Under the pieces are notes generated by a model. The model saw nothing but the letters and a program-made list of their open reading frames with translations. It was not told where the DNA came from and did not search any database. The position numbers were made by a program, and so were the translations under genes. From Candidatus Omnitrophota bacterium (GTDB taxonomy: Bacteria; Omnitrophota; Gorgyraeia; Tantalellales; Tantalellaceae), in contig JBARQV010000006.1 of assembly GCA_049643885.1 (NCBI GenBank), positions 19,234 through 83,233 of the forward strand: a stretch of 64,000 nucleotides of DNA, written 5' to 3'. Below, piece by piece: positions 19,952 through 61,925 of this stretch. Numbering within the stretch: position 1 is the first letter of the stretch; each line of letters opens with the position of its first letter.

Positions 19952-20005
19952 ATAAGATAACTGAACACAATCGAGCATTTACTCAAAAATTCACTTAAGC
20001 CCGGC

Positions 20006-20033
20006 TTGACGATATATATTTTATCATTATACT
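20006..20033 (+). promoter_or_regulatory. putative sigma70 promoter (TTGACG-16-TATACT) upstream of the excisionase-like HTH gene
   Basis: Read directly from the sequence. About 77 nt upstream of the start codon. Confidence 0.3.
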
Positions 20034-20109
20034 TACAAGCACAAGGGGCGAGAGTATATACTAATTTGTATCAACGCATACCAATTCATACCAACCCGGA
20101 GATAGTATC

Positions 20110-20295
20110 ATGGCAAGAGCGATCATGACAGTAGAAGAGCTGGCTAAATACCTGAAGATGAAAGTGGTTACTATCTATAAACACGCCCAGCAGGGCAAGC
20201 TCCCAGGCTTCAAAGTAGGCTCAAAATGGCGCTTCAAAAAAGAAACCATTGATAAGTGGATTGAGAAACAAGAAAAGAAGAAGCATGTTTTTTAG
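20110..20295 (+). CDS. excisionase-family helix-turn-helix DNA-binding protein
   Basis: 61 aa, TVEELAKYLK...IYK...GKLPGFKVGSKWRF. This is the MerR-like 'excisionase family' HTH (TIGR01764-like). Confidence 0.6.
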   Translation: MARAIMTVEELAKYLKMKVVTIYKHAQQGKLPGFKVGSKWRFKKETIDKWIEKQEKKKHVF

Positions 20296-20312
20296 AGAAG
20301 AAGGAGAAATAC

Positions 20313-21527: not shown

Positions 21528-21550
21528 CATTTTTAAAAGAGAGAACACTC

Positions 21551-22846
21551 ATGAAATTAAAAACTGATTTCGCGGTAATAGGAAGTGGTGCTGGAGGCGC
21601 GACAATTGCAATGGAACTAGCCAAAAAGGGCAGGAAGGTTTTAATTCTTGATAAGGGTTCGTTTGCAAAAGAGAGCGAAATAGGCACATTACGTTCGGCA
21701 GTGCTTACTTTTTATGATAGATGCGCTTTGCGAGCAAGCAAAGAAGGAATTATTATTTATCGGGCATTAATGGCTGGGGGGACCACTTTTGTTAGTTGTG
21801 GGAACGGGTTACCGGTTTTGGTAGATGAATTGGAACATTGTGGGATTGATTTAAAAGAGGAGTTTGAAGAAACTGAGAGAGAATTAAGCATCGCACGATT
21901 GCCGGATGATTTTATAGGACCGGGTTCACGCTTGATAATGAATGCTGCTAATAGATTGGGTTTTGATATGGGCCCTATGCCCAAATTCATCAATACGGAT
22001 AAGTGTATATTATGCGGCAAATGTGTATTGGGATGTAAAACAGGCGCTAAATGGTCTGCTTTGGATTACATTAAGGTGGCCCGTAAGCATGGCGCTAAAT
22101 TTGTTAAAAATATAGATGTAAAATCCATAGTTACGCACAATGGCAAAGCTGTTGGCGTTGTCGGGAAAAGCCCGAAGGGGACTGTTCGAGTTTTTGCGAA
22201 CAAGATTATTGTGGCTGCGGGAGGGATTGGTACGCCCGCTATCTTAAAGCGAAGCGGTATAGAAAATGCCGGAAATAAACTATTTGCCGATTTATTTAAT
22301 GTTACCTATGGCATATTTAAAGGTGAAAAAATTAATCAATGGAAAGAAGTTTCGATGTCCGTATTAAGTGCAAAATTCCTGAAAGACAGGGGGTTCATAA
22401 TATCACCGTTTATTGATGTTCCGTTAATATTGAGATGGATAACTTCAAAGAAAAGGCAATTGCAAGGGTTTAGATATAAAAACCTTCTTGGAATAATGGT
22501 TAAGATAAAAGATGACAGCAAAGGAATGGTTACGGAAAAAGGAAATTTTGAAAAGGCGCCAACGATAAATGATAACAAGCGACTTAACGAGGGTGCAAAT
22601 ATAGCAGAGCAAATACTAAGGGAAACGGGCATTAAGAGCGAGGATATATTCCATACCAAGCCAAGAGCGGCGCATCCGGGAGGATCCGCGGCTATTGGCG
22701 AAGTAGTCGATGCTGATTTAGAGACAAAGATAAAAAATCTATATGTATGCGATGCTAGTGTTTTACCGCTTTCTCCCGGCGCTCCGCCAATAGTCACGAT
22801 AGTTGCCTTGGCAAAGAGGTTGGCCAAAAGGATACTAGCATCATGA
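21551..22846 (+). CDS. FAD-dependent oxidoreductase with GMC-type C-terminal domain and an internal CxxCxxCxxxC motif
   Basis: N-terminal FAD fold (VIGSGAGG), C-terminal AHPGGSAAIG...CDASVLP like GMC_oxred_C. Internal CILCGKCVLGC motif. Confidence 0.55.
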   Translation: MKLKTDFAVIGSGAGGATIAMELAKKGRKVLILDKGSFAKESEIGTLRSAVLTFYDRCALRASKEGIIIYRALMAGGTTFVSCGNGLPVLVDELEHCGIDLKEEFEETERELSIARLPDDFIGPGSRLIMNAANRLGFDMGPMPKFINTDKCILCGKCVLGCKTGAKWSALDYIKVARKHGAKFVKNIDVKSIVTHNGKAVGVVGKSPKGTVRVFANKIIVAAGGIGTPAILKRSGIENAGNKLFADLFNVTYGIFKGEKINQWKEVSMSVLSAKFLKDRGFIISPFIDVPLILRWITSKKRQLQGFRYKNLLGIMVKIKDDSKGMVTEKGNFEKAPTINDNKRLNEGANIAEQILRETGIKSEDIFHTKPRAAHPGGSAAIGEVVDADLETKIKNLYVCDASVLPLSPGAPPIVTIVALAKRLAKRILAS

Positions 22847-22886
22847 AAGTTGTTGTACGTATATCGATATTCACAGAAGGTGAAAA

Positions 22887-25025
22887 GTGAATTTATTTAG
22901 GATATCATGTTTAATCGGGATAATATGTAATTTTGGACTAACCCTGTTTTTTCTTTCCTGGAGGGGGAAAAAGCATCCCTCGACTACATGGTTCACGGGG
23001 TTTACTTTGAGTGCCGCAGTATGGCATTTGGGCGCTTTCATGTTTTCAGCCTGTCTGGTAGAACATTATAATGCGGCATTTTTTTGGTGGAAAATATCTT
23101 ATATGGGGGCTTTTTTTGCGATAGCTTTTTTCTTTCATTTTATAATACGGTATCTTGAGTTAGGCAAAAGGTTCTTGCTTTTTGTGGTTTACTTGGCAGC
23201 TTTTACTTTTTCGTTTTTCAACTGGTACGATAATTCAAGGTATTTTTTGGGTGATATACATTTTACTTTTGACCAGTTTTATTGGATAGATGCGCTCAAA
23301 TATAAAAATCCACTATTCTTCATTTTTTACATTTCCTTTTTTTGGGTTATATTGGGGTATGGTTTCTTTCTGCTGTTAAAGGCTCTGCAGAATTCGACCG
23401 GGATTATGCATAATAAGCTGAAGTATTTTATAATAGCCGTGGGCTTTGGTTGGATAGGGACTAATCCTCTTTTTCTCCCGGCTTTTCGTATTAGTTTTTA
23501 CCCTTACAGCAATTTTCTCGTTGGCACATACCCTTTACTTGTTGCTTATGCTATTATTCGATATCAAGTTATGGATATTGAAGTTATTATCAAAAAGACA
23601 ATTGTTTTTGCTGGTCTTTTTCTTGCATCTTATGCTGTACTTGTTAGTTTCGCGTACTTGGGTTCAATTTTTTTTGAAAACGCTGTCCAGAATCGATGGA
23701 TAGCAATGGGTCCTTTTGTTTTGACGCTTGTCCTCATATTACGGCCATTGGAGAATTTTCTCAGAAACGTCACAGATAAATATCTTTTCCAGAAAAAATA
23801 TGATTACAAACAACTTTTGAAAACATTTACAGATAAAGTACTTACAGTCCTGGATCTTAAAGAACTGGTCGATCTTACGGTCAACCAGCTTGTAGATGTC
23901 ATGAAACTGGAAAATGCAAATATTTTGATCCACAATGACGAAAATAAGGAGTTCTATATAGCATCAACTGCCGGCGCTCATAAGAGAGGATATATTTTAA
24001 GTGATAGCAATCGTTTGGTGACTTACATGTATGAACATAAAAAGAATGTTATTTTAAAAAGCGCGGAGATCGATACAGAGATCGAAAAAGAGATGAATAA
24101 GATCGGCGCCGAGCTTACCATGCCTCTGCTGCATTATAAAGAGATGACAGGTATTTTGATTTTAAACAAGAAGAAATCAGATGAAGAATTCACCCAGGAT
24201 GATATCGATGTTCTTTTGTCTATGGCACGTGCTCTAGCTGTAGCGATAACGAACGCACAGCTTTTTGATAAGCTTTCAGTAGCCCAGGCTCAGGCTGCGC
24301 AAAGCGAAAAGATGGCAGTTATCGGGACTCTCTCGGCAGGTATTAATCACGAGATATGTAATCCTCTCAGTATTATCAGAGGTCAGTGTGAGATGTTTTT
24401 GCTGAATTTAAAAGAAGGGTTATATAAAAACAGGAGCACTAAAGAATTGCTTGAAAAATCCAAAGAGATCATGCAAAAGGTCATAAACGAAGCGGACCGG
24501 GCAACGGTGATAACCAGGAAACTATCATCATTTTCAAAGCCCGCGTCAAGGCAGAACCTGGATGATGTCCGGGTAGAGGATGAGCTGGACGAAGTTATTT
24601 CCCTTGTGGAGCACGATCTTCATTTATTAAATATTGAAATAATAAAGGAGATCGAAGGCGGACTTCCTTGTGTTTCCGCAGATCCCAAGCAGGTCCAGGA
24701 GATATTTTTTAACATAATAAGGAACGCGGCCCAGTCGATCAAAGGGGATGGCAAAGTAACAATAAAGGCAAAGAGTAAGGATGATAAGGTATTTGTTGAT
24801 GTTGAAGATACGGGAGCCGGCATAAATCCGGAAAATCTCAAACAAATATTCAATCCATTTTTCACGACCAAGAGTCCGGGAAAAGGAACGGGTTTGGGGC
24901 TTTTTATCGTAAGGCAGATCGTTGAAAAAAATAACGGGAAGATATCTGTTCAGAGCGAACTTGGGAAGGGAACCGTTGTCAGTTTGATCTTTAACGCGGT
25001 TACCGTAAAAGAAAAGACAATATAA
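22887..25025 (+). CDS. sensor histidine kinase with N-terminal multi-TM (7TM-like) sensor domain (GTG start)
   Basis: Hydrophobic N-terminal third, GAF-like middle, HisKA (INHEICNPL) and HATPase_c (G-x-G-L-G) domains. Confidence 0.8.
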   Translation: MNLFRISCLIGIICNFGLTLFFLSWRGKKHPSTTWFTGFTLSAAVWHLGAFMFSACLVEHYNAAFFWWKISYMGAFFAIAFFFHFIIRYLELGKRFLLFVVYLAAFTFSFFNWYDNSRYFLGDIHFTFDQFYWIDALKYKNPLFFIFYISFFWVILGYGFFLLLKALQNSTGIMHNKLKYFIIAVGFGWIGTNPLFLPAFRISFYPYSNFLVGTYPLLVAYAIIRYQVMDIEVIIKKTIVFAGLFLASYAVLVSFAYLGSIFFENAVQNRWIAMGPFVLTLVLILRPLENFLRNVTDKYLFQKKYDYKQLLKTFTDKVLTVLDLKELVDLTVNQLVDVMKLENANILIHNDENKEFYIASTAGAHKRGYILSDSNRLVTYMYEHKKNVILKSAEIDTEIEKEMNKIGAELTMPLLHYKEMTGILILNKKKSDEEFTQDDIDVLLSMARALAVAITNAQLFDKLSVAQAQAAQSEKMAVIGTLSAGINHEICNPLSIIRGQCEMFLLNLKEGLYKNRSTKELLEKSKEIMQKVINEADRATVITRKLSSFSKPASRQNLDDVRVEDELDEVISLVEHDLHLLNIEIIKEIEGGLPCVSADPKQVQEIFFNIIRNAAQSIKGDGKVTIKAKSKDDKVFVDVEDTGAGINPENLKQIFNPFFTTKSPGKGTGLGLFIVRQIVEKNNGKISVQSELGKGTVVSLIFNAVTVKEKTI

Positions 25026-25041
25026 ACAGGAGGAAGATATC

Positions 25042-25416
25042 ATGATAAAATTGCTGGTCGTCGACGATGAAATAGATATTTGCGATTTCGTGAAAAATTT
25101 CTTTAAAGAAAGGAATTTCGATGTTTCCGTGGCTTACAACGGGAAGGAGGCTCTCAGGATAATGGACACCGTAAAGCCTCAAATAGTCCTGCTGGATCTT
25201 AAAATGCCGGTAATGGATGGCATGGAAACCCTGAAAAGAATAAACAAGAGTCATCCGGAAGCAAAGGTCATCATAGTTACCGCGGTGGAAGATACGGAAA
25301 AAGCGGAAGAAGCTAAAAGGCATAACGCGGCCGAATATATAACCAAACCCTTATTTTTAGAGCAGCTTGAAAGGGCGGTCATGACGATCGCAGAGCAGAT
25401 CAAGATGGGGATGTAA
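25042..25416 (+). CDS. single-domain response regulator (receiver only)
   Basis: DD...D...K receiver residues. 124 aa. Confidence 0.85.
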   Translation: MIKLLVVDDEIDICDFVKNFFKERNFDVSVAYNGKEALRIMDTVKPQIVLLDLKMPVMDGMETLKRINKSHPEAKVIIVTAVEDTEKAEEAKRHNAAEYITKPLFLEQLERAVMTIAEQIKMGM

Positions 25417-25430
25417 AAAATAGGGGGCAT

Positions 25431-26762
25431 ATGGAAAAGGATAAAAGTTGGCGTGATATTCATGAGTGGATCATCGAAAAGATGAAAAACACTGATGGGG
25501 CGCTCATCCCGATAGATAATGAAAGTATCAGGATGAGACAGGAGCCTGAACTGGATTACCAGTTCATCCTGGAAAATACCTCGCGGAGCATGATACGTTT
25601 CAAAAAGCCGGAACGCCTCATCCGCATGATCGTCAGGGTGATCGACGAGCTGGTAAAAGTGTCCCATACGGCCATGCTTTTATACCATAAAGACAGGGAT
25701 TATTTCACGCTTATAGACAGCAAAGGAGCCGAGGGCGTCAAGATACCGATCGGGTTTATCCGGCTCACTTTTGACAATCCGCTTATTCGTTTATTTAACG
25801 AGGGGTATAATTTCAAGCTATCGGATACGGGGGCTATCGAGTATAAAGAGATGAAAACCAGCTTACACGATAACAGGATCGAAAAAGATAAAGAACTGGT
25901 AGGATTGATCGACCTGTCGCTCAGGCAAATGGATCTTTTAAAGGCGAATGTATGTATTCCAGTTTATTACAAGAAAGAGCTCGTGGGCGTTTTTGTCCTG
26001 GGCGTGAAGTTATCGGGCGAAAAATTTTCCAGACAGGAGATAGGTTTTTTCAGGACGCTGGCGAATGATGTAGCAATGGCGTTATCCAATGCCCAGCTCA
26101 TCCAGGATCTCCAGGACAAGATACATGAGATACATAACCTGTATGAGAGGGAGCATACGTTATTTTTACAGACTTCTATATCTCTTGCTGCCGCCATTGA
26201 CGCCAGGGATACTTATACCAGGGGCCATACGGAACGGGTTACACATTATGCTCTTGCGATCGCTAATGAACTGGAGGGCATTCCGGAGGCCCAGGCATAC
26301 GAGAATTTCAAGGAAACACTTCATGTTGCATCACTTCTGCATGATGTAGGCAAAATAGGAGTTCCGGACAGTATTCTGAACAAGAAAAGCCAGCTCACGA
26401 AAGAAGAATATGAGAGAATAAAGGAGCACTCCGTTACCGGTGCGGCTATCCTTTCTCCTATTAAAGAATTGGGAGATATTGCTAATGAAGTCAAGGCGCA
26501 TCACGAAAAGTATGATGGCACGGGATATCCTGACGGTTTAAAGGGCGAGGCAATACCGTTTATCGCGCGCATAATAGCTGTAGCGGATACTTTTGACGCG
26601 ATAACTAGTGACAGGCCTTACCGTCAAAAAGGGATGGAGGAGGTAGCTGTCCAGATAATAAAGGATAACTCCGGGACTCAGTTTGACCCGATCCTTGTAA
26701 GCGCTTTTCTCTTAGCTTATAGAAAAGGCAAGTTTCTTATTAATAAGAACAAGAAAGGATAA
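25431..26762 (+). CDS. GAF-domain HD-GYP phosphodiesterase (c-di-GMP)
   Basis: HD...HHEKYDGTGYP motif of the HD-GYP family. Confidence 0.85.
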   Translation: MEKDKSWRDIHEWIIEKMKNTDGALIPIDNESIRMRQEPELDYQFILENTSRSMIRFKKPERLIRMIVRVIDELVKVSHTAMLLYHKDRDYFTLIDSKGAEGVKIPIGFIRLTFDNPLIRLFNEGYNFKLSDTGAIEYKEMKTSLHDNRIEKDKELVGLIDLSLRQMDLLKANVCIPVYYKKELVGVFVLGVKLSGEKFSRQEIGFFRTLANDVAMALSNAQLIQDLQDKIHEIHNLYEREHTLFLQTSISLAAAIDARDTYTRGHTERVTHYALAIANELEGIPEAQAYENFKETLHVASLLHDVGKIGVPDSILNKKSQLTKEEYERIKEHSVTGAAILSPIKELGDIANEVKAHHEKYDGTGYPDGLKGEAIPFIARIIAVADTFDAITSDRPYRQKGMEEVAVQIIKDNSGTQFDPILVSAFLLAYRKGKFLINKNKKG

Positions 26763-28347
26763 TTTCAAAAGATGTTCCTTTTCCAGGTTCACTTTTGACG
26801 TTGATTTTTCCACCGTGTTTATTGATAATGCCATGAACAACGCTCAGGCCCAGTCCGCTGCCGCCGTCCTTTTTAGTGAAAAACGGGTCAAAGATATGCT
26901 TTAAGTCTTCTCTGTCTATGCCCTTGCCTGTGTCTTCTATCAGGATCGATATTTTGTTGTCCCCGGCTATTTCGGTTTTTACTGTGATCGTGCCGCTATT
27001 CTCAATAGATTCGAGCGCATTAAGTAAAATATTCAAGAAAATCTGTTTAATTTGTGACGGGTCAACTTTAACGGGCGGAATCCGTGAGTAGCTCTTTTCA
27101 ACTTTAATATTGTGTTTTAGAAGATCATTGTTTAAAAGTTCTAAAGTCTCGTTCAATAAGCTATTCAGGTCAGATTCCTCAAGACAAAGTTCTTTAGGTT
27201 TAGAAAAATCCAGAAGCTGCTTGACTATGCTGTTTATTTTTTCTACTTCAGCCCCAACGACATTATTAAATTTTTTAATGAAACCAGGATCATCGCATTT
27301 TTCCGGCAGGTATTCCGTAAAGGTCTTGATGGATGTAAGCGGATTTTTTATTTCATGTGCCATGCCGGCAGCAAGTGTTGCTACGGCCTTGAGTTTTTCG
27401 CTTTTTCGAAGTTCTTCGCGGAGTTTAATATTCTCCTCATCTATTTGGTCGATTGAGCCGCGGAAGAAATATTTATCAATAATTGATTGCGTCTTATTTT
27501 TCAAAGGTTGAAACAAAACGATGAATAAAATAATTAGTGCAAAAGATATTGGAAATGATTGGTAACCATAATATATTCTAAAAATATTTTCAAGCACTAA
27601 AATTATGCTGAAATAAATTATTGTTAAAATAGTTGCTAATACAGAATAAAGGAGTGTTTTTCTAAAAATTATATTAATATCGAGTAATTCATGTGCAACA
27701 ATTGCATATACAATTATAGCAGCGTAAACAAAAACCAAAATGTTTAAATAGGGTGGAAATGAAATATTGAAAAATTGAAAATAATTTGTTGAGCCACCCA
27801 GGTATCCAGCAATAGCACCTGTTAATATGTATTTTAGTTGATTTTTTCTTTTCGAAGAAACACTATGCAAATAGGATTTAAAAAGAAAAATCATCGAGAG
27901 GAGGCTAAATCCAAAAAAATTGGCAAGAAAAACATAATAAAGCGGGCCAGGAACGCCCCAATAAGGGAATATGCCGATTGGTTTCATGCCTTTAATAAAG
28001 TATGGAGTAAAAATTAATGGCAAAATTAGAAAGCTTAATAAATAACCAAAAAATAACACTCTTTTTTTATTCTTGTCTAACAGGGTAATGACAAAATGAA
28101 AAAATGTTATTGAAATAAAATTAGCGCCACAATGTAAAAACTGAAACCAAAAAAGAGTGCTATCTGAAGTTTTTGATATTGGCCAGAATATATAACCAAA
28201 ACTCCAAATGGCTATGGAGAGGTTAAATATTGCAAAACGAATGTTAATCTTAGATTTTTTGTTTTTATAATAAACGAAAAGCGCTAAGAAAATAAAGGCA
28301 ATGAAATTAATTGCGCCAGTAAGTGTAAAATATAACATTTTGTTCAT
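26740..28347 (-). CDS. sensor histidine kinase with N-terminal multi-TM domain (paralog of the 22887 kinase)
   Basis: Same architecture: HisKA (MAHEIKNPL) and HATPase_c (GSGLGLS). Confidence 0.8.
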   Translation of the reverse strand: MNKMLYFTLTGAINFIAFIFLALFVYYKNKKSKINIRFAIFNLSIAIWSFGYIFWPISKTSDSTLFWFQFLHCGANFISITFFHFVITLLDKNKKRVLFFGYLLSFLILPLIFTPYFIKGMKPIGIFPYWGVPGPLYYVFLANFFGFSLLSMIFLFKSYLHSVSSKRKNQLKYILTGAIAGYLGGSTNYFQFFNISFPPYLNILVFVYAAIIVYAIVAHELLDINIIFRKTLLYSVLATILTIIYFSIILVLENIFRIYYGYQSFPISFALIILFIVLFQPLKNKTQSIIDKYFFRGSIDQIDEENIKLREELRKSEKLKAVATLAAGMAHEIKNPLTSIKTFTEYLPEKCDDPGFIKKFNNVVGAEVEKINSIVKQLLDFSKPKELCLEESDLNSLLNETLELLNNDLLKHNIKVEKSYSRIPPVKVDPSQIKQIFLNILLNALESIENSGTITVKTEIAGDNKISILIEDTGKGIDREDLKHIFDPFFTKKDGGSGLGLSVVHGIINKHGGKINVKSEPGKGTSFEIILSCSY

Positions 28348-28386
28348 ATCTAGAAGTGATTTTTAAAATAAGACTTATAAAAATCT

Positions 28387-28743
28387 TTAAATCTTACTCA
28401 CTTTTTCTTTTACTTCGTCGCTTTCGAATGGTTTGGTGATGTAGTCGATGGCGCCGTATTGGACGGCTTTTGTGGCGGTTTCAACGCTCTGGTAACCGGT
28501 CACAATGATCACTTTTGTGTTCGGGGAGATCCTTTTGATCTCTTTGAGTGTTTCCAGGCCGTCTTTTGTCGGCATTTTGATATCCAGCAAAACACCGTCA
28601 AAATTAGCGTTCTTGACTTTATTAATAGCCTCGTTCCCGGTTGAGGCAAAATCGAGCTTATAATTATCTTCAAGTATCAGATTAAGGGATTCGCGGACAC
28701 CTTCTTCATCATCACATATTAAGATTTTTTTTTGAGTATTCAT
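28387..28743 (-). CDS. single-domain response regulator (receiver only)
   Basis: CheY-like receiver, 118 aa. Sits directly downstream (in the transcription direction) of the minus-strand kinase's partner position. Confidence 0.85.
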   Translation of the reverse strand: MNTQKKILICDDEEGVRESLNLILEDNYKLDFASTGNEAINKVKNANFDGVLLDIKMPTKDGLETLKEIKRISPNTKVIIVTGYQSVETATKAVQYGAIDYITKPFESDEVKEKVSKI

Positions 28744-28756
28744 ATTTTCCCCCTTA

Positions 28757-29308
28757 TTACAGTGCCGGCGGTGAGATCACGCAAATAGCTTCGGCTTCTG
28801 TTTTTGTCTTATTCTTGAAGAAATGGGGAAGGGAAGCGTCGAAGTAAAGGCTGTCTCCTTTTTTAAGCGCGTAGTTTTGGCCGCCGACGTTCGCTTCAAT
28901 AACCCCGGTCATGACATATATGAATTTTTCAATGCCCGGTTTATTCTTCTCTTTCTGGGTCTCTCCGCCTTTCCCGAGCACCATCATAAGAGGCATGATC
29001 TTCTTATCCAGCGTTTTAGTCACCAAAAGTTCGTATTTGGCTTTCTGGGCATGGATAAAGTGTTCCGTTCTTTTTCTTCTGGGAACGGTTTCGATCACCT
29101 TGGCTTCATCTTCAAGTTCGCCGTAAAGTTCCACCAAAGAAGTCCCAAGTGCTTTACACAGGCGGTTATGCGAGACAAGGGTGCCGGTCATTTTATTGTT
29201 CTCGATCCGGCTCAAAGTAGCCAGGGCTACGCCGCTTTTCTTGGATAGCTCCTCAAGCGTCATGTTTTGTTCTTTTCGCAGTTCTTTTAGTCTTTTTCCT
29301 ATTTTCAT
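28757..29308 (-). CDS. XRE-family transcriptional regulator with C-terminal cupin domain
   Basis: HTH_3 motif (LKELRKEQNMTLEELS...LSRIE) plus a cupin beta-barrel. Start trimmed to MKIGKRL. Confidence 0.75.
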   Translation of the reverse strand: MKIGKRLKELRKEQNMTLEELSKKSGVALATLSRIENNKMTGTLVSHNRLCKALGTSLVELYGELEDEAKVIETVPRRKRTEHFIHAQKAKYELLVTKTLDKKIMPLMMVLGKGGETQKEKNKPGIEKFIYVMTGVIEANVGGQNYALKKGDSLYFDASLPHFFKNKTKTEAEAICVISPPAL

Positions 29309-29440
29309 TTTGCCTTCCTTCCCTTGGTCCGGTAACAAATAATATATCCTAGTTTTTGCGAAAAATCAAATAGAATTTTTAATTATTGAAAATAAGGACA
29401 TTATTGTTTATAGGATATAATTATGCTACAATTATACCCT

Positions 29441-32230
<2,790 letters not shown>

Positions 32231-36407: not shown

Positions 36408-36686
36408 ATGATCAAGGTCGATATCTCAACTGCTCTTTTTTTATACCTGTTTTTCACGGCCGTATTACTCTTGATCCTATGGTCTTTTTTCAGTTTCGGG
36501 ACCAGGATGAAGACTTTCGGGTCCGAGGAGAAGTATATTTGGCATTGTTCGATATGCGCGTATACTTATATAGACAGCAAACATGAGAATATTTCAAGGT
36601 GCCCAAGGTGCAACAGTTATAATGAAAAGATCGATAAAGAGAGATTGAAGGAAAAATTACAGAAGACTATGAAGGGAGGTGAGTGA
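36408..36686 (+). CDS. small membrane protein with C-terminal CxxC...CxxC zinc ribbon
   Basis: One TM, then CSIC...CPRC. Its start is 5 nt after the tonB stop. Confidence 0.45.
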   Translation: MIKVDISTALFLYLFFTAVLLLILWSFFSFGTRMKTFGSEEKYIWHCSICAYTYIDSKHENISRCPRCNSYNEKIDKERLKEKLQKTMKGGE

Positions 36687-36921
36687 GGTGATTACACAGA
36701 TAGGCATTGTCGCGGGAGAAATATGGACCTATCTCGAGGGACATAACAAGGTCGATCATATTGACAACCTTATCAGCGAGTTGTCCAGGGACAGGGACCT
36801 GGTGCTCATGAGTTTAGGTTGGTTGGCCAGGGAGGGGCATGTCGCCATGAAGGGAGACGCCCCGAACTATTTAGTGACTCTTATGAATGAGAAGGGGAGT
36901 AAAGATGAACGAAACTGCTAA
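36679..36921 (+). CDS. small winged-helix-like protein (possibly DUF2582-type)
   Basis: 80 aa. Overlaps the upstream stop (GTGA). The wHTH call rests on a vague pattern (GEIWTYL...LSLGWLAREGHV) only. Confidence 0.35.
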   Translation: MSEVITQIGIVAGEIWTYLEGHNKVDHIDNLISELSRDRDLVLMSLGWLAREGHVAMKGDAPNYLVTLMNEKGSKDERNC

Positions 36922-37243
36922 AGACAGAGAGATACAGGAAGAAGCAAAAGAGATAGAGGAACATGCTTTGCCGATCGAGGAAGGCGCCCCGGGAGAAAAA
37001 GATGAAAGGGTGCCGATAAAAGCTCCTTTGCGGGTTTTACGCTTCAAGACGATCAACAAGCAGTTCGGATGGTGGGCCGCGGTGGTCCTTTTGGAGAGCT
37101 ACGCGAAAAAACAGGTGTGTCTGTACCTGTGGCAGAAAAGAGACGGATCATGGAAGCGTAAACAAAAGTTCGGCATACATTCCAAGGAGGACTGGCAGCT
37201 CATGAAAAACGCCGTCGAGTCCTTTGTCGGAGAATTAACGTGA
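36905..37243 (+). CDS. hypothetical protein (acidic N-terminus, basic Trp-rich C-terminus)
   Basis: ORF with a 4-nt overlap onto the HDAC start. No recognisable domain. Confidence 0.35.
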   Translation: MNETAKDREIQEEAKEIEEHALPIEEGAPGEKDERVPIKAPLRVLRFKTINKQFGWWAAVVLLESYAKKQVCLYLWQKRDGSWKRKQKFGIHSKEDWQLMKNAVESFVGELT

Positions 37244-38166
37244 TATTTGGGTCAAGATCCAAAGTACCGGTCATCTATTCCGAGAAATATTACGTGGAGA
37301 TCGGGGATCACGTATTCCCTACCTCGAAATACAGGATATTAAAAAAGCGTTTAGAGTCTGACGCGTCATTGAAAGACAAATTTGAAATGCTTTCGCCCGT
37401 GCCGGCTAAGGACGAAGAGGTCCTTACGGTCCATACACCCGAATACATTTATAAACTCAGGAACGGGACATTAAGCCCTGAAGAGGTATTCAAAATGGAA
37501 CTTCCGTATTCGCCGGAACTCGCGGAGGTGGCGTTTATTACCTGCGGCGGGACGATAACCGCTTCAAGGCAGGCTCTCGACAAGAAGGCTTCGGTCCACC
37601 TGGGCGGCGGGTTCCATCACGCGTTTCCGGACCATGGAGAGGGGTTCTGCGTCCTGAACGATATCGCCGTAAGCATAAGATCGCTGCAGATGGAAGGCTC
37701 CGTCAAAAAAGCTTTGGTAGTCGATTGTGATCTTCATCAGGGGAACGGGACCGCTTTTACTTTCAAGAATGATCCTACCGTATTTACTTTTTCTATACAC
37801 CAGGAAAACAATTATCCCCTGATGAAGCCCAAGAGCGATCTGGATATCGGCCTTCTTGACTGGACGGGGGACAAAACATATTTGAAACACCTTCACGACA
37901 ACGTGCCAAGGATCATAAGCGAGTTCAAGCCTGATATAATCTTATACCTGGCCGGCGCTGACCCTTACGAGAAAGACCAGCTCGGGAACCTGCGTCTTTC
38001 AAAGAAGGGTTTAAGGGAACGTGATAATTTCGTGTGCACCCAGGCGTTGAATTTCGGCGTGCCTATAGCTATAACTCTGGCCGGAGGCTATGCCGTCAAC
38101 AGGGAAGACACTGTAGATATACATTTCGGGACCATTGACGAGTGTATCAAGGTCTTTGTCGGGTAG
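37240..38166 (+). CDS. histone deacetylase-family (AcuC/acetylpolyamine amidohydrolase-like) Zn-dependent deacetylase (GTG start)
   Basis: HDAC motifs: GGGFHHA, D..HHGNG, and the YxAGADPY-like LAGADPYE. Confidence 0.8.
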   Translation: MIFGSRSKVPVIYSEKYYVEIGDHVFPTSKYRILKKRLESDASLKDKFEMLSPVPAKDEEVLTVHTPEYIYKLRNGTLSPEEVFKMELPYSPELAEVAFITCGGTITASRQALDKKASVHLGGGFHHAFPDHGEGFCVLNDIAVSIRSLQMEGSVKKALVVDCDLHQGNGTAFTFKNDPTVFTFSIHQENNYPLMKPKSDLDIGLLDWTGDKTYLKHLHDNVPRIISEFKPDIILYLAGADPYEKDQLGNLRLSKKGLRERDNFVCTQALNFGVPIAITLAGGYAVNREDTVDIHFGTIDECIKVFVG

Positions 38167-38233
38167 CTTGTGCCGACTGAAGGCTTTATTTTTCGTTATT
38201 TTGTGTTATAATACCTTTCACGATTTTCCTAGT

Positions 38234-38309
38234 GGGGCAGTAGCTCAGCTGGAAGAGCATCACGTTCGCAACGTGGGGGTCGTGGGTTCGAGTCCCATCT
38301 GCTCCACCA
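38234..38309 (+). tRNA. tRNA-Ala (anticodon CGC)
   Basis: Cloverleaf folded by hand. G3:U70 Ala identity pair, anticodon loop TTCGCAA, encoded CCA. Confidence 0.85.
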
Positions 38310-38313
38310 ACAA

Positions 38314-38349
38314 TAAAAAAACCCTTCAGTTTTTCTGAAGGGTTTTTTA
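38314..38349 (+). terminator. rho-independent terminator (cccttcag/ctgaaggg stem plus T-run; A-run on the 5' side, possibly bidirectional)
   Basis: Perfect 8-bp GC-containing stem followed by TTTTTT, directly after the tRNA. Confidence 0.6.
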
Positions 38350-38366
38350 TTGTCGTTCCGTTCCCA

Positions 38367-38530
38367 TTAAACGTTCATCAGACGTTTGACTCATCTGAAT
38401 GTTGAAAAGGCCCGGGGGTGTATTCCGTGCTCAGACAGTCCAAAAAAAAGCGACCTAAAATCGCTTTTTTTTGGAAACTCGCACTGAACACACCCCCGGA
38501 CCTTTCCGTAACCCTGATCAGATCAAGCAT
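38367..38530 (+). repeat. F1 structured repeat, copy a (about 165-bp imperfect palindrome centred on the perfect hairpin ccaaaaaaaagcga...tcgcttttttttgg)
   Basis: About 90% identical to copy b at 41146-41312 in the same orientation. Internal long inverted repeats. Confidence 0.75.
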
Positions 38531-38544
38531 CTGAGTGAAGAAAT

Positions 38545-38710
38545 TTGTGATTTTTATTGCCTGGACTGTTCCGTACAGGGCTTTAAATTTCCGAGCGGGC
38601 ACGGTTCGCCCGTGTCCTAACTTCCGGCGAGAGCGAGGAAATTTTAGAGTCCGATTTTCTCGCTGGGAAAAGCGGACGTCCCTGGTAGGAACGGACAGGT
38701 AATAAAAAAA
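38545..38710 (+). repeat. F2 structured repeat, copy a (about 165 bp, 25-bp terminal inverted repeats ttattgcctgg.ctgttccgtacaggg / ccctggtaggaacggacagg.aataa, two internal hairpins)
   Basis: About 95% identical to copy b at 59266-59431 in the same orientation. Confidence 0.75.
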
Positions 38711-38745
38711 CCACGAATCACGAACCACGAACGACGAACCACGAG
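38711..38745 (+). repeat. tandem heptamer (cacgaa[c/t]) x5 microsatellite
   Basis: ccacgaatcacgaaccacgaacgacgaaccacgagg, read directly. Abuts F2a. Confidence 0.6.
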
Positions 38746-38801
38746 GGGCGCGACTTGACTTTTCGGGAGAATAGGGCATATTTGTTACTTAAGGAGGTGG
38801 T

Positions 38802-38978
38802 ATGATGAAAATAATTTCTTGTTTATTAGCTTTGGTCGGGTTGGTCTGTATAGCCTTTTCGATCCTCATGAAGCTCAAAGGGATCAATCTTCTGGGAGCC
38901 GGCGCCCCGGTATCGTATTTAGTGCTTGCGAACACCTTCTTTCTTCTATCGATCTCTGCGGCGATGCATAAAAAGTGA
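38802..38978 (+). CDS. hypothetical small membrane protein (58 aa; below the cutoff of the ORF track)
   Basis: Strong RBS AAGGAGGTGG 5 nt upstream of ATG. Two predicted TM helices. Confidence 0.4.
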   Translation: MMKIISCLLALVGLVCIAFSILMKLKGINLLGAGAPVSYLVLANTFFLLSISAAMHKK

Positions 38979-39145
38979 TAAAAATCCTTGTTTAAGGGGA
39001 CATGATCTGTTTCCCGTAAAGATCCCAGGCTTAATTGCTTGGGATTTTTATTTCTGTGGCGTATAATATGGTACTATGCGGGGTATAAAAAACAGCTCTT
39101 GAAACGCGCCGAAGCGGTGCTCTCATGAAACGAGGTGTTACAGGC

Positions 39146-39505
39146 ATGAAAAAGCTTATACTTAAAACGTTCATTATTCTTTTTCTGGCCGTTTTTTCTA
39201 CGGCCTCGGCCCGGGGAGCAGGGGATATCGATCTTTCAAAGATCCCGGACGGTGTATATAAGGGTAAATGCAGATATTACGGGATGTTTACGTGCGAGGT
39301 GGAAGTAAGGGTGCGCGACCACCGGATAACCGATATCAAGGTATTTGAGGACAGGGAAAGTGAATATGTGGAACAAGCCAAGGGTGTTACTAAGAACGTG
39401 ATAAAGGAACAGTCTTTGAAAGTTGATACTGTCACGGGAGCTACAATTACCAGCCGGGCGATACTTAAGGCCATAGAGAACGCGTTGGCGAAAAAGGGTA
39501 AGTAA
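39146..39505 (+). CDS. secreted FMN-binding-domain protein
   Basis: Signal peptide, C-terminal ...VDTVTGATITSRAI motif of the FMN_bind domain (PF04205-like). Start trimmed to MKKLILK. Confidence 0.55.
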   Translation: MKKLILKTFIILFLAVFSTASARGAGDIDLSKIPDGVYKGKCRYYGMFTCEVEVRVRDHRITDIKVFEDRESEYVEQAKGVTKNVIKEQSLKVDTVTGATITSRAILKAIENALAKKGK

Positions 39506-39520
39506 AAAAAGGGGGATACG

Positions 39521-39640
39521 ATGAAAGTTAAAGAAGCAGGAGAAAATTACAGGTGCAACATTTGCGGCAATGAGGTCACCGTGACGAAAGCGGGAGGGGG
39601 AGAACTTGTCTGCTGCGGTCAGCCGATGGAAAAAATATGA
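39521..39640 (+). CDS. desulforedoxin (39 aa; below the cutoff of the ORF track)
   Basis: [12 protein letters not shown]...[12 protein letters not shown] matches the desulforedoxin CxxC...CC Fe(Cys)4 signature. RBS GGGGGA upstream. Its stop overlaps the next start (ATGA). Confidence 0.7.
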
Positions 39641-41124
39641 AACGGTTTCTCCCGGCAGTTCTGGTTTTATTTCTGCTATCCGTCTCGTGGAACGAAGCTT
39701 CCGGAAAAATGGCCGACCTAGCGGGCTCGTGGTACACGGCTGATCCCCGCGCTCTTGAGGCCGAGCTGAAAGATTACCTGGACAATGCCGATGTCCCCCC
39801 GGTCGAGGGGGATATCATCGGCCTTGTGGCTCCCCACGCGGGGTTCAGGTATTCCGGTCCCGTAGCGGCATATGCGTATAAAGCGGCCTTGAAGCAGGAT
39901 CCGGACCTGGTTGTAATTGTCGGTTTTTCCCACAGGAAATATTCCCCCTGGATATCGGTTTTTACCGACGAGAGTTTTGTCACGCCGCTCGGCCCCCTTG
40001 CCGTTGACCAGGAGCTATCCCGTAAGTTGATGGCTTCAAATGAAAAGATACAAAGCGTTCCCGGGTTGTTCGAGCAGGAAAATTCGGTAGAGATGGAGAT
40101 CCCGTTCGTGCAGGTCGCTTTCAAGAACGCCCGGGCGGTGCTGGTAGCTGTAGGCGAGCAGAGCCGGGAGAATTTCCATATCCTGGGAGACGCCCTGTAT
40201 GAAGTTCTGCGTGGTGAGAAGAATTTCATAATTATCGCGAGCACGGACATGTGCCATTATCTGCCTTATGAAGAGGCGAACACGCGGGACGCAATGACGA
40301 TCAAAGCTATAAAAAGCTTCGACCCGGATAATTTTTATTCCGTGAGCCTGAAAAACAGGCATGAACTGATGTGCGGTCCGGGGCCTGTCTGCGCGACGAT
40401 GCTCGCGTGTAAAAAACTGGGCGCGGACAAGGTCGAAATATTGAAATATGCCAATTCCGGCGATACTTCGGGAATGAAGGACCGGGTCGTCGGTTACCTC
40501 AGCGCGGCTTTTGTCAGGAGCGGAGGAAGAAAAGCCGGGGAGAAGCCGGCGGCAGTAAAGGAGGGCAGCGAGATGTTTACTCAGGAGCAAAAAGATAAGC
40601 TCTTGAAGATCGCAAGAGACACTATGCGTCATTATCTTGAAACCGGGAAACGCCTTGAAGTGGACGTCGAGGACGAAGCCCTTAAAGAAGATATGGGCGC
40701 GTTCGTGACCCTTCATGAGAAAGGGAAGTTAAGAGGATGTATCGGCCATATGGTCGGCACACAGCCTTTTTACCTTACTGTAAGGGATATGGCGATCGCG
40801 TCGGCCACCGAAGATCCCAGGTTTCCGCCGGTTACAGCGGGTGAGCTGGACGATATTGATATTGAGATATCCGCGCTTTCCCCGATGAGGAAAATAGACG
40901 ATTACAACGAGATCAATATCCCCGGGCAGGGTGTAATGGTCAGGATGGGTTTCCGCAGCGGAGTTTATCTTCCCCAGGTCGCGATAGAGACCGGTTGGGA
41001 CAGGGACCAGTTCATGAACAGCCTCTGCGCGCATAAGGCCGGTATCCCCATGGATGCATGGAAAACAGGGGCATGCGATATATACGTCTTCGACGCGGAA
41101 GTATTCGGGGAAAAAGAAAAGTAG
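39637..41124 (+). CDS. fused MEMO1-family (AmmeMemoRadiSam system protein B) / AMMECR1-domain (protein A) protein with a signal-peptide-like N-terminus
   Basis: MEMO1 motifs (GSWY..D, APHAG..YSG, TDM(C)HY) in aa 25-300. AMMECR1 motif (GAFVTL...LRGCIG) in aa 330-495. The N-terminal 22 aa are hydrophobic; an alternative start at the Met inside [11 protein letters not shown] is possible. Confidence 0.8.
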
Positions 41125-41145
41125 TATCGTGATCCGTATATCGTG

Positions 41146-41312
41146 TTAAACGTTCATTGGATGCTTGACTTATCTGAATGTTGAAAAGGTCTGGGGGGTG
41201 TATTCCGTGCTCAGACAGTCCAAAAAAAACGACCTAAAATCGCTTTTTTTTGGAAACTCGCACTGAACACACCCCCAGACCTTTCCGTAACTCTGATCAG
41301 GTTAATCATCCA
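41146..41312 (+). repeat. F1 structured repeat, copy b
   Basis: See copy a. Lies between the MEMO1-AMMECR1 stop and the rsmE start. Confidence 0.75.
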
Positions 41313-41347
41313 CAGGCAATAAACAAATCGATGATGACTAACGAACA

Positions 41348-42094
41348 ATGAGCAGATTTTACGTTCCAAAAGAAAAAGTAAATCAAGCGAGAAACGAGAT
41401 CCTCATCGACGGTGAAGAAGCTCATCACATCCTCGATGTCATGCGGCTCAAGGATGGGGATACGCTCGTCGTCTTTGACGGCACAGGGGTCGAATACTCG
41501 GGTTTTATCAAGAAAGCGGATCCGCGCTCGAAAGCCTTAACGGTTGAAATAATAAGGATCGATAAACCGGCCGCGGAAAAGATACCGGAGATCATCCTGG
41601 CCCAGGCGATCCCAAAGAAAGCCAAAATGGAGCATATCATAGAAAAGGCCACGGAACTGGGCGTTTCCCGCGTTATACCGCTGGTCACCGGCAGGACCAT
41701 AGTCAGGCCCGATGAGACCGGGCGTGAGAAGAAAGTCTCAAGATGGAAAAAGATCGCTGCCGAATCGTCAAAACAATGCGGCAGGGTAGACGTCCCGCCG
41801 GTCGAAGATATCACCAGGTTTGAGGACCTGGTCAAGACCCTCGATGAATACGACCTGGCGCTTCTGGCGCATGTTTCGGAAAAGACTGAACCGATCAAAA
41901 AAGCATTGGCAGATTTCAGGTCCGGGAAGATAATCGTCTTTATAGGCCCGGAAGGGGATTTCACTCCCGATGAAGTTAAAATGACCGAAGGCAAAGGCAA
42001 TTGCAGGCTGGTATCCCTTGGCAGCCGGGTCCTCAGGGCTGATACGGCCGGTCTTTTTGTCCTCTCTGTCCTCAATTACGAATTCTCGATGTGA
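41348..42094 (+). CDS. rsmE: 16S rRNA (uracil1498-N3)-methyltransferase
   Basis: RsmE family: N-terminal PUA-like domain and C-terminal SPOUT domain. Confidence 0.85.
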   Translation: MSRFYVPKEKVNQARNEILIDGEEAHHILDVMRLKDGDTLVVFDGTGVEYSGFIKKADPRSKALTVEIIRIDKPAAEKIPEIILAQAIPKKAKMEHIIEKATELGVSRVIPLVTGRTIVRPDETGREKKVSRWKKIAAESSKQCGRVDVPPVEDITRFEDLVKTLDEYDLALLAHVSEKTEPIKKALADFRSGKIIVFIGPEGDFTPDEVKMTEGKGNCRLVSLGSRVLRADTAGLFVLSVLNYEFSM

Positions 42095-43401
42095 TGATGA
42101 AGCCGACCTTTACGATAGAGACGCTGGGCTGTAAAGTCAACCAGTACGAGTCACAGGTTATCAGGGAAGCCCTTGTCAGGCTTGGGTTTGAGGAGGCCGA
42201 CGCCGACCAGGCCGAAGTAGGCATCGTCAATTCCTGCACGGTTACTTCCAAGGCTGACGGCAAGACGAGAAAACTGGTGCGGAAATTAAAAAAAAGCAAT
42301 CCGTTCAGCAGAATATTCGTCACCGGGTGCTGCGCGGTGTTCAGTGAAGATATCGAAGAACTGGAATCGTTGCCCGAAGTTCACAAGGTAGTGCCGAACC
42401 GGGATAAAATGAAATTGCCGTTCATTATAGGTTCCGAATACGGGAAAGAAACAGATAACCAGCCGGTCGAAGAGCGGGTTTCAGGGTTTGATTTGCATAC
42501 AAGGGCGTTTCTCAAGGTCCAGGATGGCTGCGACCGGAGATGTTCTTACTGCAAGGTGAATCTGGTCAGGGGGCCCTCGCGCAGCAAAGATAAAAAAGAT
42601 GTTATTGAAGAACTTGTGCGCCTGGTAGGCCGCGGGTATAAAGAGATCGTGATCACCGGCATATGCCTTGGAGGCTGGAAAGGTGCCGGCGGGGAAAAAT
42701 TTTCTGATCTTTTAAGGGATGTCGACGGATTGACTGGAGATTTCAGGATAAGGCTGAGCTCGATCGAACCGGACCATATAGATGAAGACCTTATTGACGT
42801 AATTTCCGGATCAAGCAGGATATGTCATCACTTGCATATACCCCTTCAAAGCGGCTCGGATAAGATATTGAAGCTTATGAAAAGAGAATACGACACTGGA
42901 AAGTTGGAAGAGTTGATAGCAGGTATAAGGAAAAAGATCCCTTTGGTCGGGATAACCATGGATGTCATTTGCGGTTTTCCGGGTGAAAGCGACGAGGATT
43001 TTGAAAGAACGCTCTTTTTTATTGAAAAAGTGAGGCCGACGCGTTTACACGTCTTCAGCTACAGTGATCGTAAAGGCACTTGTTCGCACAAAATGAAAGA
43101 AAAAGTGCCGATAGAGAAGATCCGGGAGCGTGTAAGCCTTTTAATAGGGGTCGGGGAAAAACTTCAGGCTGAGTTCTGCAGGAAATTTATCGGCCAGGAA
43201 GTAGAGATCCTCGTGGAGAAAAAAATAAAAGACGACATGCTTATTGAAGGCTATACCGGTGAGTATGTTAAGGTAAAATTAAAGGGTTTTTCAGGAAAAG
43301 AGGGTTCTTTAATCCGTTCAAAAGTTAATTATGTTGATGAAGTTTTGCCTTTCCTTCTTATAGGGCACAAGGAACCCAAAGAAAAAGCAACAAAACGTTA
43401 G
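42091..43401 (+). CDS. mtaB: MiaB-like tRNA methylthiotransferase (MtaB-type)
   Basis: MTTase N-terminal domain (TLGCKVNQYES), radical SAM CDRRCSYC, C-terminal TRAM. RimO is separate, so this one is most likely MtaB. Confidence 0.65.
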   Translation: MMMKPTFTIETLGCKVNQYESQVIREALVRLGFEEADADQAEVGIVNSCTVTSKADGKTRKLVRKLKKSNPFSRIFVTGCCAVFSEDIEELESLPEVHKVVPNRDKMKLPFIIGSEYGKETDNQPVEERVSGFDLHTRAFLKVQDGCDRRCSYCKVNLVRGPSRSKDKKDVIEELVRLVGRGYKEIVITGICLGGWKGAGGEKFSDLLRDVDGLTGDFRIRLSSIEPDHIDEDLIDVISGSSRICHHLHIPLQSGSDKILKLMKREYDTGKLEELIAGIRKKIPLVGITMDVICGFPGESDEDFERTLFFIEKVRPTRLHVFSYSDRKGTCSHKMKEKVPIEKIRERVSLLIGVGEKLQAEFCRKFIGQEVEILVEKKIKDDMLIEGYTGEYVKVKLKGFSGKEGSLIRSKVNYVDEVLPFLLIGHKEPKEKATKR

Positions 43402-61833: not shown

Positions 61834-61844
61834 GAAGTAAAGAG

Positions 61845-61925
61845 TATAGTGCAGTATGTTCCCGTACAGGGAGGATCCACACCGGGCGGAGGGGCCCTGG
61901 TAGGGAATATACTGCACTGTATAGT
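61845..61925 (+). repeat. F3 repeat, full copy b: about 28-bp-stem hairpin (tatagtgcagtatgttcccgtacaggg...ccctggtagggaatatactgcactgtata)
   Basis: Read directly. Lies between the feoB stop and the radical SAM start. Shares the gtacaggg/ccctggtag core with the F2 termini. Confidence 0.65.

Follow-up and report, generated by a model that had tools for sequence, protein, structure and literature searches.

Does a small redox protein supply electrons to the bacterial counterparts of MEMO1 and AMMECR1, and on which side of the membrane would it do so? Both families have links to disease and show conservation all the way from archaea to humans, and we know of no biochemical activity for either. The question is raised by a gene cluster in a 64,000-nucleotide stretch of a Candidatus Omnitrophota genome (contig JBARQV010000006.1 of assembly GCA_049643885.1, positions 19,234–83,233; the whole stretch is called the window), in which genes for a 58-residue membrane protein, an FMN_bind protein and a 39-residue desulforedoxin (Dx) precede the gene for a Memo–AMMECR1 fusion. 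An original prediction, made by a model from the letters of the window, took Dx for a dedicated redox partner of the Memo domain. The predicted localisation of the proteins weakens that role for Dx, and the redox tie itself survives via an extracytoplasmic flavin. In the reading that we prefer, and which we regard as evenly balanced between right and wrong, the fusion would be exported, FMN_bind would act as a flavinylated relay and Dx would be cytoplasmic.

The Memo–AMMECR1 fusion

The four open reading frames of the cluster lie on the plus strand, at the positions given in the original prediction (Table 1). The identities proposed for Dx, FMN_bind, Memo and AMMECR1 were borne out by searches with hidden Markov models (HMMs), all matches lying far above threshold. 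Proteins B and A of the AmmeMemoRadiSam trio were indeed found fused in one polypeptide of 495 residues: TIGR04336 (protein B, residues 27–292) scored 250 bits against a cutoff of 26, and TIGR04335 (protein A, residues 321–490) 169.4 bits against a cutoff of 99. The exact sequence of the fusion protein and its 120 best homologs were retrieved from Omnitrophota metagenome-assembled genomes (MAGs) and metagenomes, which identifies the window as part of a Candidatus Omnitrophota genome; the Memo plus AMMECR1 architecture was present in all 120. An AlphaFold2 model of the monomer (mean predicted local distance difference test score, pLDDT, of 90.9) showed two well-folded domains and an N-terminal helix at residues 4–16, and the linker around residues 299–311 was disordered (pLDDT below 50).

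Human MEMO1 matched the fusion with a phmmer E-value of 1e-20. The Fe/Cu ligands of MEMO1, H49, H81 and C244 (PMC11081632), aligned to H67, H99 and C246 of the fusion, and D189 and H192 to D204 and H207; all five residues of the fusion were invariant among 28 homologs. Judged from the alignment, the 2-His-1-Cys metal site of the Memo domain is intact.

The N-terminus of the fusion resembles a signal peptide, which the original prediction had overlooked, and this resemblance is conserved. A conserved motif at the mature N-terminus was present in 113 of the 120 closest homologs. An extension of at least 15 residues preceded it in 108 of these 113, each time with a hydrophobic core (108/108) and in 105 cases with K or R ahead of the core. 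Position −3 was alanine in 75 of the 108, and alanine dominated positions −3 and −1. Related loci were collected as an unbiased set of 99, made up of 80 GTDB species representatives and 19 JGI metagenome loci; almost every one of the 80 species loci encoded a fusion with a similar, signal-peptide-like N-terminus. Two loci from MAGs outside the Omnitrophota, L071 (Candidatus Poribacteria) and L072 (uncultured bacterium), had a lipobox on the fusion, and in three homologs (P0038, P0057 and P0059) a Zn-ribbon plus a transmembrane (TM) helix took the place of the signal peptide. An internal start at M25, which would remove the signal peptide, was considered and rejected: this residue is not methionine in homologs, and the hydrophobic segment upstream of it is conserved. 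The fusion thus appears to carry a conserved Sec-type (general secretory) signal peptide and to be exported from the cytoplasm.

The FMN_bind protein

The domain assignment rests on a PF04205 score of 52.6 bits (cutoff 22). The longest open reading frame starts at 39125 (39125–39505, 126 residues); the likelier start gives the protein of 119 residues listed in Table 1. Its flavinylation motif, TGAT at residues 97–100 (nucleotides 39434–39445), conforms to the pattern [S/T]GA[S/T] (PMC8238504), and the surrounding D-x-x-TGAT-x-TS was invariant in every distinct ortholog listed. By inspection, the N-terminus of every ortholog consists of K/R residues followed by a hydrophobic segment, which would serve as signal peptide or anchor. 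The predicted signal peptide of the window's protein ends in …FSTASA/RG. The protein had been called an FMN-binding lipoprotein. The FMN_bind domain and the signal peptide stand, and the lipoprotein label is unsupported, since no lipobox ([LVI][ASTVI][GAS]C) was found in the signal region MKKLILKTFIILFLAVFSTASARGAG, which is free of cysteine; the first cysteine is residue 42 of 119.

Forward and reverse comparisons of gene neighbourhood gave divergent results. FMN_bind adjoined the fusion at 7 of the 99 unbiased loci, representing three distinct lineages, and always directly upstream; likewise, all 15 significant matches of a profile search across 106 loci lay directly upstream of the fusion. 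For the reverse look-up, FMN_bind homologs were drawn from a collection of 5.8 billion proteins, in which the close group was 50–100% identical over 87–100% of the query and the matches beyond it included named Clostridium proteins. Each of the six close homologs looked up (50–100% identical) was encoded directly upstream of a Memo–AMMECR1 fusion. Besides the loci of the window's own species (L108–L111), the look-up yielded L112 (order 58-residue gene, FMN_bind, Dx, fusion), L113 (FMN_bind, Dx, fusion) and L114, L115 and L116 (Zn-ribbon-TM gene, FMN_bind, fusion). Beyond this close group, a homolog from a Clostridium genome and one other were in unrelated contexts. By these neighbourhoods, FMN_bind is a dedicated but clade-restricted and dispensable partner of the fusion in its putative operon; we call it dedicated because all close homologs examined adjoin a fusion gene, while few fusion loci have FMN_bind.

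Desulforedoxin

The 39-residue protein with CxxC…CC and an ATGA overlap with the fusion gene was found as the original prediction had described it. PF06397 scored 66.1 bits (cutoff 23) and TIGR00319 52 bits (cutoff 36.05), and the four cysteines, C12, C15, C31 and C32, form a predicted Fe(Cys)4-type site. The protein is a stand-alone Dx and not the N-terminal domain of a desulfoferrodoxin, as judged from its length and from a TIGR00320 score of 40.7 bits against a cutoff of 146.9. Its stop codon and the start codon of the fusion share the ATGA. Across the three lineages in which Dx lies beside the fusion (the window's species, L112 and L113), the spacing between the two genes was −4, +10 or +4 nucleotides. 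No export signal or targeting sequence was seen in Dx.

Identity between the window and L112 or L113 was 64% or 69% for the fusion, 73% or 70% for FMN_bind and 87% in both cases for Dx. Between the window and these two loci the Dx codons showed 16–18 synonymous against 5 nonsynonymous differences, an excess which indicates a real gene under purifying selection. Outside the three lineages the association was not seen. At none of the 99 unbiased loci was a Dx found next to the fusion, using phmmer, a regular expression and a profile HMM built from 120 Dx homologs. The expectation that Dx and FMN_bind would be conserved as neighbours of these genes in related genomes was thus disappointed in the forward direction (0/99 and 7/99), and for FMN_bind it was upheld in the reverse one (6/6). 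Four other close Dx homologs were looked up: two had a rubrerythrin neighbour, one lay between tatC and a GH94 gene and one followed an alpha/beta hydrolase. No Memo or AMMECR1 gene was near any of them, and a rubrerythrin gene follows the closest ones (up to 90% identical); the window itself contains no rubrerythrin.

Overall, this distribution characterises Dx as a late and narrow addition, apparently inserted between FMN_bind and the fusion. Because Dx lacks an export signal while the fusion and FMN_bind have signals, direct electron transfer from Dx to the Memo domain is unlikely; Dx is probably on the side of the membrane opposite to the fusion and FMN_bind.

The radical SAM protein AmrS

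All three parts of AmmeMemoRadiSam had been predicted to be encoded in the window, and they are: the radical S-adenosylmethionine (SAM) protein, AmrS, lies 21 kb from the fusion and contains the CxxxCxxC motif. The gene for the ferrous iron transporter, feoB, ends 140 nucleotides before the start of AmrS (the two genes together span 60103–63152), and the longest AmrS open reading frame overlaps it; iron-related co-expression of AmrS is possible. The N-terminus of AmrS is Tat-like (twin-arginine translocation), reading LTRKDFLKK…AYAA with a glycine-rich h-region.

About 22 of 24 full-length AmrS genes from related loci encode a hydrophobic N-terminus. A wider sample was obtained from a scan of 1.84 billion cluster representatives, from which the best 150 AmrS relatives (P0304–P0453) were taken. 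Among these 150, 30 had a canonical twin-arginine motif (for example SRRDFIKK, TRRDFLGA and SRREFLKA), 11 had hydrophobic N-termini of the Sec, TM or lipoprotein type, and 94 had no extension. Tat export suits proteins with Fe-S clusters. SAM and low-potential reductants are cytoplasmic, so an exported radical SAM enzyme is unexpected, and a literature search for Tat-exported radical SAM enzymes returned nothing relevant.

AmrS is directly upstream of the fusion (about 1.1 kb) at roughly 23 of the 80 related species loci. At L031 (6882–9449) AmrS, B and A form a single open reading frame headed by one N-terminal signal, in which AmrS joins B exactly where the mature B part begins. Behind one signal, all three domains of this triple fusion would share a compartment. 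Further arrangements were noted among the AmrS relatives: in P0329 a signal is followed by a Memo-like N-terminus, and an AMMECR1 tail closely precedes the C-terminal AmrS domain; in P0319 AMMECR1-type sequence leads straight into AmrS, and P0394 seems to resemble it.

Variation upstream of the fusion gene

Upstream arrangements were mapped on a neighbour-joining tree of 106 fusion proteins. On the deep branches AmrS was directly upstream of the fusion, and this layout is apparently ancestral. One clade has a DsbA-like thioredoxin-fold protein and a MauE/DoxX-like membrane protein with a CGC motif directly upstream, at 0.4–1.3 kb (L040, L041, L045, L046, L051, L052, L056, L062, L076 and L077). 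This putative periplasmic thiol-disulfide pair supports an extracytoplasmic location of the fusion and a sensitivity to redox state. Another clade (L017, L019, L023, L098, L103, L105 and others) has a CutA-like gene 0.1–0.5 kb upstream. CutA-like proteins are associated with divalent-cation tolerance, and the neighbour is of interest in that MEMO1 binds Cu and Fe.

The window's own clade has a Zn-ribbon-TM gene, FMN_bind or both upstream in several sub-branches, with many losses. The Zn-ribbon-TM protein has 64–70 residues, with N-terminal CPxCG…CxxCG knuckles of the zinc-ribbon or rubredoxin type and a C-terminal TM helix. Its gene immediately preceded that for the fusion or FMN_bind at no fewer than nine loci (L003, L007, L009, L013, L066, L075 and L114–L116), and it is this module that is joined to the Memo–AMMECR1 protein in P0038, P0057 and P0059. 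It is missing from the window, where the 58-residue gene holds its position and Dx supplies the Cys4 module. The arrangement 58-residue gene, FMN_bind, Dx, fusion is confined to the small subclade of the window; the sister locus L001 has only the 58-residue gene, directly upstream of the fusion. The 58-residue protein was also considered as a remnant of the Zn-ribbon-TM gene, and this was rejected for want of any detectable similarity.

Proposed mechanism and alternatives

In the proposed mechanism the fusion would work outside the cytoplasm, with a covalently flavinylated FMN_bind protein as its dedicated extracytoplasmic electron relay. This relay might feed the Fe/Cu centre of the Memo domain, the AmrS protein with its export signal, or both, much as flavodoxin serves radical SAM enzymes in the cytoplasm. 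Dx would stay in the cytoplasm without contact with the exported fusion, either as a recently recruited donor or protector on the cytoplasmic side or as a passenger from the Dx–rubrerythrin oxidative-stress pair.

Several points weigh against this mechanism. Export, flavinylation and electron transfer are predictions from sequence, and the signal peptides were assigned by eye with the help of simple hydropathy rules. No apbE was found among the open reading frames of at least 150 residues in the 64 kb of the window. FMN_bind is absent from most relatives, including the close L001, L003, L004 and L089, and must therefore be dispensable. Dx has been kept in overlapping or tight spacing, which suggests more than a passenger. 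Finally, the Tat-like motif of the window's AmrS has RK and not RR, and an extracytoplasmic radical SAM enzyme would have no obvious supply of SAM and low-potential electrons, so the topology is puzzling.

Of the alternatives, the one that survives best, possible but unlikely, is that Dx is uncoupled from the fusion. It would be a mobile or duplicated gene from a Dx–rubrerythrin pair that settled in a permissive spot, serves its own cytoplasmic defence against peroxide or oxygen and shares the promoter. The rubrerythrin neighbours of the closest (90% identical) homologs and the narrow distribution beside the fusion are in keeping with this. So is the region upstream of the fusion, which is a hotspot of gene turnover (occupied by AmrS, CutA, DsbA/MauE, Zn-ribbon, the 58-residue gene or a tRNA), and so are the repeats that flank the block and resemble miniature inverted-repeat transposable elements (MITEs). 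What tells against it is that the position of Dx has been kept down to 64–69% identity of the fusion, and that the start/stop overlap or spacing of 4–10 nucleotides suggests translational coupling.

A relay across the membrane is improbable. Electrons would pass from Dx to a membrane component (the 58-residue protein or an unlinked one), on to periplasmic FMN_bind and then to Memo–AMMECR1 or AmrS; in sister lineages a membrane-tethered Cys4 (CPxCG…CxxCG) protein would replace both Dx and the 58-residue protein. All four genes occur together in L112, and the Zn-ribbon-TM gene takes the corresponding position upstream of FMN_bind in L013, L075, L114, L115 and L116. Such a relay would also match the three-tier scheme described for flavinylation-based extracytosolic electron transfer, with a cytosolic donor, a membrane component and a flavinylated protein (PMC8238504, Méheust et al. 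2021). The 58-residue protein, however, has no conserved pattern of cofactor ligands and seems to be transcribed separately, a single TM helix free of cofactor cannot carry electrons over about 30 Å, and no NapH-, DsbD-, MsrQ- or PepSY-like module was found nearby.

Least probable of all is direct transfer, with Dx as cytoplasmic one-electron donor to the Memo metal and the N-terminus of the fusion as no export signal or as an anchor on the cytoplasmic face: the ATGA overlap, a position kept at 4–10 nucleotides in L112 and L113 under purifying selection, the normally cytoplasmic chemistry of radical SAM enzymes and the single compartment of AmrS and B-A in L031 would suit it, but none of the 99 unbiased loci has Dx, which elsewhere adjoins rubrerythrin or unrelated genes, the N-terminus of the fusion has n-, h- and c-regions arranged as in cleaved Sec signals, its n-region being positive (N-in) and the residues at −3 and −1 small, the Zn-ribbon-TM-fusion architectures and the DsbA/MauE neighbours point outward, and relatives of AmrS carry canonical Tat signals.

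Returning to the exported fusion with its flavin relay, we also consider a wider proposal, which as a whole is unlikely. The entire AmmeMemoRadiSam system might be extracytoplasmic in the Omnitrophota and perhaps in about one in four members of the wider AmrS family. AmrS, exported in folded form by Tat or anchored, and Sec-exported Memo–AMMECR1 would act jointly on a substrate in the envelope; in the window's clade, covalently flavinylated FMN_bind would be the periplasmic counterpart of flavodoxin, with Dx, or in sister lineages a membrane-tethered Cys4 protein, on the cytoplasmic side.

Transcription units, repeats and genomic setting

Three NCBI MAGs and Logan contigs of seven samples contain the block of four genes with 99.97–100% identity at the DNA level, which excludes an assembly artefact. 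Within the block, the 58-residue gene is probably a separate transcription unit. A terminator-like hairpin and a promoter-like site, the best match to the sigma-70 consensus in this region, follow it (Table 1), which makes an operon FMN_bind-Dx-fusion likely; the gap between FMN_bind and Dx is 15 nucleotides and the overlap of Dx with the fusion 4 nucleotides. The 58-residue protein had zero matches in Pfam or NCBIfam. An ortholog, 67% identical, has the same position in L112, and between the two proteins one cysteine and one histidine are the only conserved residues of the ligand type.

Table 1. Positions in the window of the genes, domains and nucleic acid elements of the cluster and its surroundings.
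Feature	Position	Strand	Basis and remarks
tRNA-Ala(CGC)	38234..38309	+	ARAGORN; Rfam tRNA, 64 bits
Terminator hairpin 3' of tRNA-Ala(CGC)	38316-38348		terminator scan
165-nucleotide hairpin-forming direct repeat, copy 1	38367..38531	+	repeat search
58-residue small membrane protein, two hydrophobic segments	38802..38978	+	open reading frame; strong ribosome-binding site AAGGAGGTGG
Terminator-like stem-loop with U-tract after the 58-residue gene	39016..39051	+	15-bp stem; z = −3.5 for 87-nucleotide segment
Sigma-70-like promoter match TTGGGA-17-TATAAT upstream of the FMN_bind gene	39039..39067	+	10/12 consensus matches
FMN_bind protein, 119 residues	39146..39505	+	PF04205, E = 7.2e-14; likelier start, ribosome-binding site GAGGTG, NCBI annotation
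Stand-alone Dx, 39 residues	39521..39640	+	PF06397, 2.2e-18; TIGR00319, 4e-14; ribosome-binding site GGGGGA
Memo–AMMECR1 (AmmeMemoRadiSam B-A) fusion, 495 residues	39637..41124	+	HMMs
Fusion, signal-peptide-like segment, residues 1-23	39637-39705	+	inspection; following residue K
Fusion, Memo domain, residues 27-292	39715-40512	+	PF01875, 5.5e-60; TIGR04336, 2.4e-74
Fusion, AMMECR1 domain, residues 321-490	40597-41106	+	PF01871, 2e-52; TIGR04335, 4.6e-50
165-nucleotide hairpin repeat, copy 2, between the fusion gene and rsmE	41146..41310	+	repeat search
rsmE	41348-42094	+	NCBIfam match
mtaB	42091-43401	+	NCBIfam match
AmrS, 392 residues	61974..63152	+	TIGR04337, E = 5.6e-111, 370.8 bits (cutoff 220)

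The two copies of the 165-nucleotide repeat flank the four-gene block, are about 92% (91.6%) identical to each other and are the only copies in the window. The element forms a long near-perfect hairpin (fold −68.5 kcal/mol, z = −10) and is probably MITE-like or REP-like (repetitive extragenic palindromic). An Rfam scan of 38100–41500 (E-values up to 1) gave only the tRNA, all other hits lying far below the gathering scores. The idea that the repeats bound a mobile island of four genes was rejected, with the fusion at its ancestral syntenic position and the repeat absent from L112 and L113. A 25-nucleotide inverted repeat (38340–38364 and 38688–38712) encloses copy 1, and the 250 nucleotides of non-coding DNA between copy 1 and the 58-residue gene (38535–38790) contain a run of CACGAA-like units at 38709–38745, without a match in Rfam.

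The tRNA-Ala(CGC) and its terminator are the upstream limit of the variable region. On the 3' side of the fusion gene, rsmE was found at 48 and mtaB at 42 of the 80 species-representative loci; this synteny across the Omnitrophota indicates that the fusion gene is at its ancestral place and that only the stretch directly upstream varies. The cluster is embedded in housekeeping genes, with ribE, xerD, nrnA, truB, ribF, pnp, uppP, ftsK, rimO, uvrA and exbB on its 5' side and rsmE, mtaB, cvpA, dnaG, rpoD, dtd and pfk on its 3' side. A conserved trio upstream of the cluster (36408–37243) recurs at about 11–23 of the 80 related loci and in close relatives occurs with or without a deacetylase. It encodes a 92-residue protein with a TM segment and a CxxC…CxxC zinc ribbon, which gave weak rubrerythrin-rubredoxin-like matches, an 80-residue DUF2582 winged-helix protein and a 118-residue protein that belongs to no family.

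A separate observation concerns positions 20000–29500, where the GC content is 38–42% as against 46–52% in the flanks; an acquired island is possible. The genes in this region encode a fatty-acyl-reductase-like NAD_binding_4 protein, a GMC oxidoreductase with an inserted 4Fe-4S motif, two 7TM-HisKA histidine kinases, a GAF-HD-GYP protein and a cupin-HTH regulator. Two of them are on the minus strand, the window being otherwise plus-strand.

Implications

The bacterial three-gene system offers the best route to the activity of MEMO1 and AMMECR1. Export of Memo–AMMECR1 would restrict its substrate to the cell envelope, and FMN_bind is a specific candidate for the electron donor that can be expressed and assayed. 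The Tat signals often seen on AmrS, if functional, would challenge the notion that radical SAM enzymes work in the cytoplasm alone. Should the wider proposal hold, there would be a radical SAM pathway outside the cytoplasm, served by a chain of electron supply dedicated to it. Dx is the least general of the clues; the useful ones are the flavin partner and the extracytoplasmic location that is predicted.

Comparison with known systems

The closest known system is AmmeMemoRadiSam itself (TIGR04335, TIGR04336 and TIGR04337), of which all three families are present here above their curated cutoffs, with B and A fused. Fusions of B and A have already been annotated by the JGI and NCBI pipelines for many Omnitrophota proteins, and more distant Omnitrophota have AmrS directly upstream of B-A, with all three fused at one locus. 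The window differs in that AmrS is 21 kb away, that B-A has a Sec-type and AmrS a Tat-like signal, and that the same operon encodes an FMN_bind protein that can be flavinylated; Dx is found in this subclade only. Memo–AMMECR1–radical SAM contexts were reportedly catalogued in 2019 by Burroughs et al., who are said to have linked Memo to the modification of nucleotide bases or isoprenoids. Among the literature found, AmmeMemoRadiSam received passing mentions only, the combination of AMMECR1, radical SAM and Memo yielded only a mere citation of Burroughs 2019, and a 2026 preprint on Omnitrophota genomes does not discuss Memo proteins or AMMECR1.

Human MEMO1 (PDB 3BCZ, 7KQ8 and 7L5C) belongs to the same fold family as the Memo domain of the fusion. 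It is a cytosolic, single-domain protein without known enzymatic activity (PMC11081632), whereas in the Omnitrophota protein AMMECR1 forms a second domain and export is predicted. The Dx of the window shares its length class (36–41 residues), the CxxC…CC pattern and strong PF06397 and TIGR00319 matches with the desulforedoxin of Desulfovibrio gigas and with Dx proteins paired with rubrerythrin; unlike these it lies inside an FMN_bind/Memo–AMMECR1 operon and is neither adjacent to rubrerythrin nor fused to desulfoferrodoxin.

The FMN_bind protein has the domain, the signal peptide or anchor and the [S/T]GA[S/T] motif in common with the ApbE-flavinylated proteins NqrC, RnfG and PplA, and in the vicinity of the motif it locally showed a weak resemblance to RnfG and NqrC. 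In contrast to these it consists of one small domain, and no Nqr, Rnf, NapH-, DsbD-, MsrQ- or PepSY-like membrane module is linked to it. The words Memo and AMMECR1 are absent from the main text of the flavinylation survey (PMC8238504). The AmmeMemoRadiSam trio, B-A fusions, stand-alone Dx and flavinylated FMN_bind proteins are thus already known. What appears to be new is the operon of FMN_bind and the fusion, the insertion of Dx into that operon, and the consistent export signals predicted on all three components.

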